Assembly: GCF_044324785.1 (NCBI RefSeq)
Contig: NZ_CP172127.1
Source: Escherichia coli
GTDB lineage: Bacteria > Pseudomonadota > Gammaproteobacteria > Enterobacterales > Enterobacteriaceae
Length of the DNA: 64,000 nucleotides
Strand: one strand, 5' to 3'
Shown here piece by piece: positions 8,624 to 10,883 of the stretch; position 1 is the first letter of the stretch; the number at the start of each line of letters is the position of its first letter. The translations under genes were made by a program, and so were the position numbers. Under the pieces are notes generated by a model. It was given only the letters and a program-made list of their open reading frames with translations. It searched no databases and was not told where the DNA came from.

Positions 8624-8757
8624 TCGCTTCTCCACACCGTTGCCGCGTTGTGCATTCGGCTTTGCGAGTCTGCTCCAGAAAATAAATCAAAGTCAGATCA
8701 ATGCGTTGTGTTTATTTAATGGGGATTTACGATGGCAGGGCAGCATGGGGCTGTAAC

Positions 8758-8899
8758 GGTAAAGCCCTCACCGAAGCGAGGGCTTGAAGGAGAAGGGTTA
8801 TGATGCGACTTGTCATCATACTGATTGTACTGTTACTCATAAGTTTCCCAGCTTATTAACAGTCAGTCTCAGGGGAGGAGTCATCCTCCCTTACCCTTA
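8758..8899 (-). ncRNA. sibC: SibC antisense sRNA (antitoxin of ibsC); boundaries approximate
   Basis: Minus-strand TTGACA (8929-8934) - 17 nt - TAATTT (8906-8911) promoter; GCCCTC..GAGGGC hairpin plus UUU at 8764-8783; ~140 nt fully overlapping ibsC on opposite strand. Confidence 0.65.
8800..8859 (+). CDS. ibsC: type I toxin, 19-aa hydrophobic peptide IbsC (MMRLVIILIVLLLISFPAY)
   Basis: ATG ATG CGA CTT GTC ... TAT TAA read directly; GAAGGAGAAGG RBS 4-14 nt upstream; location in serA-ygfA intergenic region. Confidence 0.8.
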   Translation: MMRLVIILIVLLLISFPAY

Positions 8900-8959
8900 C
8901 TCACTAAATTAGGTTAAAGAATCAACGATGTCAATCAGGGCGATGCAGGTGTGTCGCCC

Positions 8960-9508
8960 TTACCACTCCCAGACTTTCGACGGTGTAACCACCGCAGGAA
9001 GTGGGATATCCCACTCTTCAACGGGGAGTTTTTCCACCAACTGACAATCATGCGCATAACCCACCGGTTGCATTTGATAGCGCTGCCAGTTTTGTAAGGT
9101 CCGATCATAAAAACCACCGCCCATTCCCAGGCGCTGACCGTACTCATCAAAGGCGACCAGCGGTGTGATCAACACGTCTAATCGGGAAAGGGGTAGCACG
9201 TCACGCACATCCAGTTTTGGCTCATGGATCTTCAACCTGTTCATCACCAGTTCGCTTTGCGGATGGTAATTCAGGAACAGCAAATTACCGGCACTAAAGG
9301 GATGCAAAACTGGAAGATATACGCGCTTACCGGCGCGCCAGAGTTGTTCTATGAGTGGCTGGGTGTCGAGTTCGCCATCAAAAGAGAGGAATACAGCGAC
9401 CGTATGCGCCATCACCACTGGGGGATACGTCATCATCCGGGTAGCGGCTTGTTGACCCATTTCCTGCTGTTGTTCCGGCGTTAACGCACGACGACGTTGC
9501 CGAATCAT
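8960..9508 (-). CDS. ygfA: 5-formyltetrahydrofolate cyclo-ligase family protein, 182 aa (alternative ATG at 9562 would give 200 aa)
   Basis: ORF 8960..9706 trimmed because its 5-prime 66 codons overlap the 6S RNA gene; MIRQRRRALTPEQQQEMGQQAATR N-terminus. Confidence 0.8.
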   Translation of the reverse strand: MIRQRRRALTPEQQQEMGQQAATRMMTYPPVVMAHTVAVFLSFDGELDTQPLIEQLWRAGKRVYLPVLHPFSAGNLLFLNYHPQSELVMNRLKIHEPKLDVRDVLPLSRLDVLITPLVAFDEYGQRLGMGGGFYDRTLQNWQRYQMQPVGYAHDCQLVEKLPVEEWDIPLPAVVTPSKVWEW

Positions 9509-9582
9509 TTTGCGGATTTCTTGTCGGGATAATGTCAGTGGGAGTTCTGGTAGTTGCGTCATGGCTGGTGCCAGATAAGAAG

Positions 9583-9766
9583 GGAATCTCCGAGATGCCG
9601 CCGCAGGCTGTAACCCTTGAACCCTTGGTTCAAGGTGAATGTGTCGTCGCAGTTTTAAGGCTTCTCGGACGGACCGAGCATGCTCACCAACCGCGGAGCG
9701 CCACATTCTTGTGGTATGAAATATCGGCTCAGGGGACTGGCCCGCTTGCGAACATCTCAGAGAAAT
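9583..9766 (-). ncRNA. ssrS: 6S RNA (RNA polymerase sigma70-holoenzyme regulator), ~184 nt
   Basis: Reverse complement reads ATTTCTCTGAGATGTTCGCAAGCGGGCCAGTCCCCTGAGCCGATATTTCATACCACAAGAATGTGGCGCTCCGCGGTTGGTGAGCATGCTCGGTCCGTCCGAGAAGCC..., matching the 6S RNA sequence as I recall it; immediately upstream of ygfA. Confidence 0.9.
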
Positions 9767-9807
9767 TTTGTCTTCACGGTTACTCTACCACAGTAAACCG
9801 AAAAGTG

Positions 9808-10203
<396 letters not shown>

Positions 10204-10304
10204 CTATAGCTACCCTGATGAGAAGAGACAAGCCCTTTTCTGGTCCACCAGGGCCCAAAGTGGTAGCATATCATGAATATTCCTCCCTTTGACGACGAAT
10301 GCTT

Positions 10305-10883
10305 ATGTCTATACAGAACGAAATGCCTGGTTACAACGAAATGAACCAGTATCTGAACCAACAAGGGACGGGTCTGACCCCTGCTGAGATGCATGGTTTA
10401 ATCAGCGGGATGATATGTGGCGGTAACGATGACAGCTCATGGCTGCCGCTACTTCACGACCTGACGAACGAAGGCATGGCTTTCGGTCATGAGCTGGCAC
10501 AGGCACTGCGTAAAATGCACTCTGCCACCAGCGATGCCCTGCAGGATGACGGCTTCCTTTTTCAGCTTTATCTGCCTGATGGCGATGATGTCAGCGTTTT
10601 CGATCGGGCTGATGCGCTGGCAGGTTGGGTCAATCACTTCCTGCTTGGTCTTGGCGTTACGCAACCGAAGCTGGACAAAGTGACCGGCGAAACCGGTGAA
10701 GCCATCGACGATCTGCGTAACATCGCGCAGCTGGGCTACGACGAAGACGAAGATCAGGAAGAGCTTGAAATGTCGCTTGAAGAGATCATCGAATACGTTC
10801 GTGTTGCCGCGCTGTTATGCCACGACACCTTTACTCATCCGCAACCGACCGCGCCAGAAGTACAAAAACCGACTCTACACTAA
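10305..10883 (+). CDS. ygfB: UPF0149 family protein YgfB, 192 aa
   Basis: ORF 10299..10883, start at second ATG ([17 protein letters not shown]). Confidence 0.85.

Follow-up and report, generated by a model that had tools for sequence, protein, structure and literature searches.

Where does the fau (ygfA) gene of Escherichia coli begin, when its reading frame stays open into the gene of a structured RNA lying immediately upstream? The question arises in a 64,000-nt stretch of E. coli DNA (assembly GCF_044324785.1, contig NZ_CP172127.1), which we analysed as a whole and call the window, and in which an ORF listing reports an ATG-initiated frame of 248 aa at 8960..9706 on the minus strand, overlapping 124 of the 184 nt of the 6S RNA gene ssrS (9583..9706). 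Two more in-frame ATGs follow on this strand, at 9562-9560 (200 aa) and at 9508-9506 (182 aa), and the extension amounts to 66 codons relative to 9508 (248 minus 182) or to 48 codons relative to 9562. The 248-codon ORF, the candidate ATGs and the 66-codon extension are all present in the DNA just as a first, sequence-only reading of the window had described them. Taken as a whole, the locus is best explained, and we say so with high confidence, as a dual-function ssrS-fau (ygfA) transcription unit, in which the 248-codon ORF is a chance frame and fau most likely runs from 9562 and encodes 200 aa.

A region of 1 kb matches that of E. coli strain XDL with 100% identity, and among 5426 complete E. 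coli genomes the locus was found in 5425. Within 8700..10300, read on the minus strand, zapA comes to its end and is followed, after a gap of 41 nt, by a segment of 184 nt, a pyrimidine-rich spacer of 20 nt and an ORF ending at 8960 (Table 1). The gene order in E. coli is zapA-ssrS-fau(ygfA)-sibC/ibsC-serA, and the RefSeq annotation across the locus lists pepP, ygfB, zapA, ssrS, fau, ibsC, and serA. The ssrS-ygfA (fau) unit of K-12 (b2911-b2912) is the same locus with the same order (zapA-ssrS-fau-sibC/ibsC-serA), and the two differ by strain-level substitutions only, e.g., in the segment QRYQMQ of the protein encoded here, the Fau core being 98.4% identical. The K-12 unit has reportedly been described as dual-function before, by Hsu and colleagues in 1985, by Kim and Lee in 2004, and by Chae and colleagues in 2011.

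Table 1. Features of the ssrS-fau locus, ordered along the direction of transcription (positions are those of the window).
Feature	Position	Strand	Basis or status
zapA, upstream of ssrS; holds the distal promoter candidate	9808..10137	-	PF05164 ZapA, E 8.7e-21; RefSeq
P2-like distal ssrS promoter candidate inside zapA; -35 TTGCAA (10026..10021), 17-nt spacer, -10 TAGAGT (10003..9998)	9998..10026	-	by eye
P1-like proximal ssrS promoter; -35 ATGACA, 18-nt spacer, TG-extended -10 TAGAGT	9782..9811	-	consensus scan, 9/12 matches
ssrS, 6S RNA gene, mature RNA of 184 nt	9583..9766	-	Rfam RF00013; identity with K-12; RefSeq ssrS annotation
Spurious 48-codon 5' extension from ATG 9706, over the 3' two-thirds of ssrS and the spacer	9563..9706	-	judged non-coding
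Spacer from the 6S 3' end to the fau start, 20 nt, pyrimidine-rich, no Shine-Dalgarno sequence, CTTCTTATCTGGCACCAGCC	9563..9582	-	sequence
C-rich, G-poor (rut-like) stretch, spacer plus the first ~19 fau codons	9505..9582	-	composition
fau (ygfA) CDS, 5-formyltetrahydrofolate cyclo-ligase, 200 aa; ATG 9562, stop 8962-8960	8960..9562	-	best-supported model
Internal ATG, Met19 of the 200-aa protein; start of the 182-aa model (K-12 NC_000913.3, UniProt)	9506..9508	-	probably not the main start
SIB RNA	8934..8784	-	Rfam covariance-model scan

A covariance-model scan of the whole window against Rfam gave two matches above the gathering score, 6S/SsrS and SIB RNA. The sequence-only reading had recognised 6S RNA on the minus strand and had named such a search as the way to check it; the search recovers a full-length 6S at 9766..9583, with 139.8 bits (E 2.2e-28, cmscan) against a curated gathering score of 46.4 bits for RF00013, and the match covers positions 1-187 of the 187 in the model without truncation. 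The alignment to the model keeps the consensus structure line with non-canonical pairs at two places only, and the gene is identical to K-12 ssrS (100% over 184 nt). When the precursor is folded for minimum free energy (z = -3.3), the 184-nt segment pairs its 5' end with its 3' end, which forms a long closing stem enclosing internal loops. ssrS is the founding member of the 6S family and belongs to RF00013 on every criterion that we checked, the match being full-length, with the family consensus structure and no notable difference. An RNA of this sequence, which is identical in K-12, binds the sigma70-RNA polymerase holoenzyme and is a template for pRNA synthesis (PMC3299989).

The stop-free frame reaches back to 9784/9785 and therefore crosses the whole of ssrS, not only the part that follows ATG 9706. 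Two readings of this open frame can be set against each other, a chance absence of stops or a genuine 248-aa isoform of YgfA initiated at ATG 9706 within 6S, in which case the same DNA would be dual-coding for RNA and protein. The isoform has in its favour that all of ssrS is free of stops in Escherichia and that the 248-aa model has been deposited repeatedly (e.g., AJE57453.1 or CBJ02606.1, in at least 1000 contigs), but these database entries are the output of gene callers that choose the longest ORF and do not constitute protein evidence. A run of 74 stop-free codons such as that upstream of ATG 9562 appears in about 4.7% of shuffles with the same base composition, so that chance suffices as an explanation.

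For the comparison between species, the homologous locus was taken from 68 species representatives, the 6S and the protein core were located in each, and the frame was walked upstream from there. 6S lies directly upstream of the 5-formyltetrahydrofolate cyclo-ligase (5-FCL) gene in 60 Enterobacteriaceae loci and in four Pasteurellaceae loci; one Colwellia locus, in which a 6S match at the gathering threshold was absent, was excluded from this synteny count. Species counts hereafter refer to those 60 Enterobacteriaceae loci, in all of which 6S is full-length. Among them the ygfA frame stands in all three phases to the 6S 3' end (phases 0, 1, and 2 in 19, 23, and 18 loci, respectively), and an ATG within 6S occurs in five loci only, all of them Escherichia. 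In the non-Escherichia loci an in-frame stop closes the frame 47–72 nt into 6S, or even before 6S is reached. The 41 codons overlapping 6S gave zero matches to NCBIfam families, the PF01812 match to the 248-aa translation does not begin before residue 61, and a Shine-Dalgarno (SD) sequence is absent at ATG 9706, which moreover lies inside the folded part of an RNA that is abundant and excised from the transcript. Judged by these comparisons, the 248-codon ORF is an artefact, a chance stop-free frame whose extension into ssrS is non-coding, and the 248-aa isoform can be regarded as effectively refuted, with next to no probability left to it. The sequence-only reading had dismissed the longer ORF in the same way, and both the changing phase between genera and the confinement to Escherichia of an ATG inside 6S bear it out.

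Public databases hold three incompatible models of this one sequence, with 248, 200, and 182 aa, and once the longest is set aside the disagreement concerns the two ATGs downstream of 6S. The curated K-12 gene model (NC_000913.3, b2912) has 549 nt/182 aa and starts at K-12 position 3,056,241, the equivalent of 9508, as does UniRef 5FCL_ECOLI, whereas PGAP annotates 603 nt/200 aa from the equivalent of 9562 (54 nt earlier, at 3,056,187 in K-12) in XDL (whose sequence is identical), in O157:H7, and in re-sequenced K-12 MG1655. If fau started at ATG 9508, the 74 nt between 6S and this codon would be an untranslated leader. Besides the curated annotation, this reading can claim the presence of the 182-aa form in hundreds of contigs and its scores, which are well above the family cut-offs (NF007661 423.6 bits, TIGR02727 170.8 bits). 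A methionine is also kept at the 9508-equivalent codon in 11 of the 60 species, namely in every Escherichia locus that was examined and in a small number of other genera. In the remaining 49, however, this position is not a start codon, being occupied by Leu, Ile, Val, Thr, Gln, Phe, His, or Tyr and never by GTG or TTG, while an in-frame ATG past the 6S 3' end is found in every one of the 60. It lies 14–24 nt downstream of 6S in 57 species and 99–125 nt downstream in three, and it sits 14–18 codons upstream of the 9508-equivalent codon. The same arrangement is seen in the Pasteurellaceae, with 6S at 124–131 bits, an ATG 12–15 nt later and no Met at the 9508 equivalent.

The variation between the two ATGs also argues against an untranslated leader. 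Mean column entropies there are 0.74, 0.43, and 1.29 for codon positions 1, 2, and 3, compared to 0.47, 0.47, and 1.44 in the undisputed fau core, and codons 11–16 (SRQEIR) show 0.47, 0.10, and 1.13. By this measure the codons between the two ATGs display third-position-biased variation of the coding type, i.e., the supposed leader varies like coding sequence, and it encodes an invariant R-x-x-I-R motif. The two arginines, R13 and R17, are located at the start of helix 1 and are invariant in the alignment. Phmmer alignments place them opposite K10 and R14 of human MTHFS (3HXT), K2 and R6 of Bacillus subtilis YqgN (1YDM), and the K and R at the corresponding sites of Aquifex MTHFS (1SOU). K10 and R14 of the human enzyme are residues that we take to contact the phosphates of ATP; a literature search for support for these roles found none.

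Profile coverage and predicted structure point in the same direction. The 200-aa form covers positions 1-182 of the 182 in TIGR02727 (with residues 13–194) and 2-198 of the 198 in NF007661, but the 182-aa form enters TIGR02727 only at position 8 and spans 17-198 of NF007661, losing the first 7 and the first 16 positions, respectively. Position 1 of PF01812 aligns six residues upstream of Met19, and full coverage of PF01812, TIGR02727, and NF007661 is obtained only with the 200-aa form. In the AlphaFold model (pLDDT 79, pTM 0.79) residues 1–8 are predicted to be disordered and helix 1 comprises residues 13–25, so that Met19 falls in the middle of this helix and a protein initiated at 9508 would begin mid-helix. 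The complete 5-FCL domain, including the N-terminal helix with its basic K/R-x-x-[IL]-R motif, is found in the 200-aa model only.

Signals for ribosome binding help little in this choice. Anti-SD duplex energies are -0.7, -1.5, and -0.7 kcal/mol for ATGs 9706, 9562, and 9508, with a background mean of -2.2 and a value of -7.8 for zapA. An SD sequence is absent at all three candidate ATGs, including 9508, and SD strength therefore does not discriminate between them. A full-text literature search gave no direct protein or ribosome-profiling evidence on the ygfA start codon, and ygfA, fau, b2912, and P0AC28 are absent from the TRAINSPOTTER N-terminomics supplements; as N-terminal proteomics or initiation profiling for fau was not found in the literature, the start at 9562 is a strong inference and not a demonstration. 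On conservation, codon-position variation, sequence content, profile coverage, and predicted structure, ATG 9562, 20 nt past the 6S 3' end, is nevertheless most likely the start of fau, and initiation at 9508 as the gene's main start appears improbable. The sequence-only reading had placed the start of ygfA downstream of 6S, at ATG 9508 or alternatively at 9562. Both ATGs exist and the extension upstream of them appears non-coding, so this part of the claim stands, but of its two starts it is the alternative one, present in 60 of 60 species, that the comparison favours, and not the first-named, which is Met in 11 of 60. Because Escherichia keeps Met19, some minor initiation at 9508 may occur.

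The protein encoded from 9562 is, by sequence and predicted fold, a member of the 5-formyltetrahydrofolate cyclo-ligase/MTHFS family on every criterion checked. It scores 161.4 bits with PF01812 (positions 1-186 of 186; cut-off 27 bits), 444.6 bits with NF007661 (cut-off 343), and 179.1 bits with TIGR02727 (cut-off 84.9), and the four best sequence matches to solved structures have E-values of 5.6e-22 to 6.6e-16. A Foldseek comparison of the model with 1YDM, 1SOU, 2JCB, and 3HXT gave E-values of 1e-11 to 1e-14 and TM scores of 0.68–0.77. Fau thus shares with this family (PF01812, TIGR02727, NF007661; 1YDM, 2JCB, 1SOU, 3HXT) both HMM scores at the equivalog level and the fold, and differs from it in that the enterobacterial proteins carry a short variable N-terminal tail before helix 1 (E. 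coli residues 1–12), whose codons lie in the C-rich stretch downstream of 6S. E. coli YgfA is said to convert 5-formyl-THF to 5,10-methenyl-THF in an ATP-dependent reaction, in work by Jeanguenin and colleagues from 2010.

How fau is transcribed is bound up with the RNA gene in front of it. ssrS and fau lie on one strand, 20 nt apart (9583 to ATG 9562), with no intrinsic terminator between them; the terminator scan found none between 9766 and 9134 on the minus strand. Upstream of 6S, the P1-like site predicts that transcription starts about 9 nt before the 5' end of mature 6S, and P1 as mapped by Kim and Lee in 2004 presumably starts 9 nt upstream of mature 6S. The P2-like site, with 8 of 12 matches, falls under the scan threshold; its position fits the P2 start of the same authors, which we take to lie about 224 nt upstream of mature 6S. 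Overall the consensus promoter scan did not exceed chance, with two sites found where 1.6 are expected, so that both assignments are positional and not statistical. The existence of P1 and P2 upstream of 6S has been reported (PMC12152304). A terminator-like site within fau (9133..9118, minus strand) was judged to be due to chance, as one such site was found and 1.9 are expected in shuffles.

Co-transcription of 6S RNA and ygfA is described in the literature, together with a widely conserved linkage of the two (PMC2848244, PMC7641849, PMC4064990), and during 6S maturation RNase E/G and exonucleases remove additional 5' and 3' sequence (PMC12152304). In Coxiella burnetii ssrS is located in the 5' UTR of ygfA (PMC4064990), which resembles E. 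coli in that 6S is followed directly by a 5-FCL gene of the same orientation. The beta- and gamma-proteobacterial ZapA-SsrS-(FAU1)-EVE arrays (PMC7641849) share the same-strand 5-FCL gene directly downstream of 6S, but E. coli has no EVE gene downstream and carries the SibC/IbsC toxin-antitoxin locus there instead. The proposal made from sequence alone, a co-transcribed ssrS-ygfA unit that needs processing, agrees with what has been published (PMC2848244, PMC7641849, and PMC3299989, which cites Chae et al. 2011).

A bla insertion in ssrS had no polar effect on ygfA (PMC2848244), which is not what a strictly dicistronic arrangement would predict.

Could fau then be expressed mainly from a promoter of its own and not by read-through from ssrS, the two genes being merely adjacent? 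The missing polarity of the bla insertion speaks for this, as do the three species in which the spacer between 6S and fau measures 99–125 nt and leaves room for a promoter. Read-through from the bla cassette can, however, account for the missing polarity. With a gap of 20 nt to ATG 9562 the promoter would need to sit inside the 6S gene, and in the consensus scan the minus strand was free of promoter-like sites from 9782 to 9133. Tight spacing is kept in 57 of 60 Enterobacteriaceae, and in the Pasteurellaceae, and published work reports co-transcription with a linkage conserved across proteobacteria (PMC3299989, PMC2848244, PMC7641849, PMC4064990). We therefore rate an independent fau promoter as very improbable.

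In published descriptions of the dual-function unit that we favour, transcription begins at promoters upstream of 6S, RNase E/G cuts out the 6S 5' end, and most transcripts end Rho-dependently shortly into ygfA. Exonucleases would trim these terminated transcripts back to the 6S closing stem, giving the mature 3' end, and the full fau message would presumably be carried by read-through transcripts only. Termination was reportedly placed about 90 nt downstream in the 2011 study by Chae.

The composition of the DNA between 6S and the fau core is relevant here. The C/G ratio of the stretch 9582..9505 is 2.36, which corresponds to the 99.4th percentile of 78-nt windows on the same strand, and an equivalent C-rich, G-poor stretch was found in 60 of 60 species (C/G of 1.56–3.75, median at the 99.45th percentile within each locus). 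Across these species the composition is kept although the sequence itself is poorly conserved, and in 57 of the 60 the spacer is 14–24 nt long and CT-rich. Judged by its composition, the conserved stretch 9582..9505 is the likely Rho loading site. A literature search combining ssrS and bicyclomycin found no E. coli data.

Rho-dependent termination within ygfA has been described (in PMC3299989, citing Chae et al. 2011), and the rut-like composition seen here agrees with it.

With the start of fau at 9562, the rut-like stretch would lie almost entirely inside the first ~19 codons and not in an untranslated leader. One tentative possibility, rather unlikely on present evidence, is that initiation at ATG 9562 masks the Rho site and so determines how much 6S RNA is made relative to Fau. 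Ribosomes initiating at the SD-less 9562, which follows the closing stem of 6S by 20 nt, would cover the site where Rho loads and permit read-through, whereas a failed initiation would leave the site exposed and lead to termination, followed by 3' trimming into 6S RNA.

Overall, the 6S RNA gene, its linkage to ygfA/fau, their co-transcription, and Rho-dependent 3' end formation were all known before, and the locus holds little new biology; its value is one of annotation, with the disagreement on the start codon as the sole residue of interest. The K-12 reference and UniProt model is probably 18 residues too short and lacks R13 and R17, the invariant arginines near the beginning of helix 1, and YgfA cloned or modelled from the 182-aa entry may therefore be truncated. 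The locus also makes plain why non-coding RNA genes should be masked ahead of ORF calling. If masking of Rho by initiating ribosomes were true, it would explain why the DNA encoding the variable N-terminal tail of the protein stays C-rich from genus to genus, and why 57 of 60 species keep a distance of 14–24 nt between the 6S 3' end and the start codon.

The most divergent match was E. coli Z1323HEC0477 (94.8% identity), where a 6-nt in-frame deletion within the variable N-terminal tail of Fau (locus L003, 1339..1935) removes two residues (…ELPLTLSRQ… becoming …ELPLSRQ…) and leaves a protein of 198 aa. An indel that preserves the frame is consistent with this tail segment of Fau being coding. 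A different case is the homologue of Enterobacter sp. EA-1 (locus L067, 1501..1878), which runs into a stop after only 126 codons and shows a low apparent identity in the conserved core (55%), suggesting a frameshift or pseudogene, or else an assembly error.

The spacer between the 6S RNA gene and fau, typically of about 20 nt, has been widened by inserted sequence to 99–125 nt in three loci, listed in the table below together with the features found downstream of fau. As for ssrS itself, its length is 183 nt in the K-12 reference record (L002, 1484..1666) versus 184 nt according to both PGAP (L001, 1635..1818) and the Rfam alignment, the two models differing by a single base at the 3' end. 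On the ygfB side, mechanical ORF calling in the window gave an ORF of 194 aa (10299..10883, plus strand) starting at ATG 10299, for which no SD-like sequence was found, while the RefSeq ygfB (579 nt) starts two codons downstream, at 10305.

Features adjoining fau in the window and expanded 6S-fau spacers in homologous loci
Feature	Location	Strand	Organism	Remarks
SibC antitoxin RNA	window 8784..8934	-	E. coli	Rfam RF00113, 136.5 bits
ibsC toxin gene, 19 aa	window 8800..8859	+	E. coli	antisense to SibC; translation MMRLVIILIVLLLISFPAY
Expanded 6S-fau spacer	L030 1399..1500		Klebsiella spallanzanii	
Expanded 6S-fau spacer	L037 1376..1500		Enterobacter sp. 10-1	
Expanded 6S-fau spacer	L050 55..153		uncultured Klebsiella	

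On its downstream side, fau is adjoined by a type I toxin-antitoxin pair, SibC/ibsC, whose toxin has the protein accession WP_071525914.1, as opposed to WP_010723220.1 in K-12. An additional Ibs-family toxin gene, presumably accompanied by a second Sib RNA, occurs in E. coli O157:H7 (L072, 1642..1701) and in several other strains (matches H33–H37 and H39), mostly isolated from cattle or veal. The gene is borne by an insertion of approximately 390 bp, absent from the window, which separates fau from ibsC. When a 1-kb query was compared with E. coli genomes, 6058 places were found in 5425 records, with no more than two per genome and one place located on a plasmid; the surplus places are probably copies of the Sib/Ibs repeat at other chromosomal sites.
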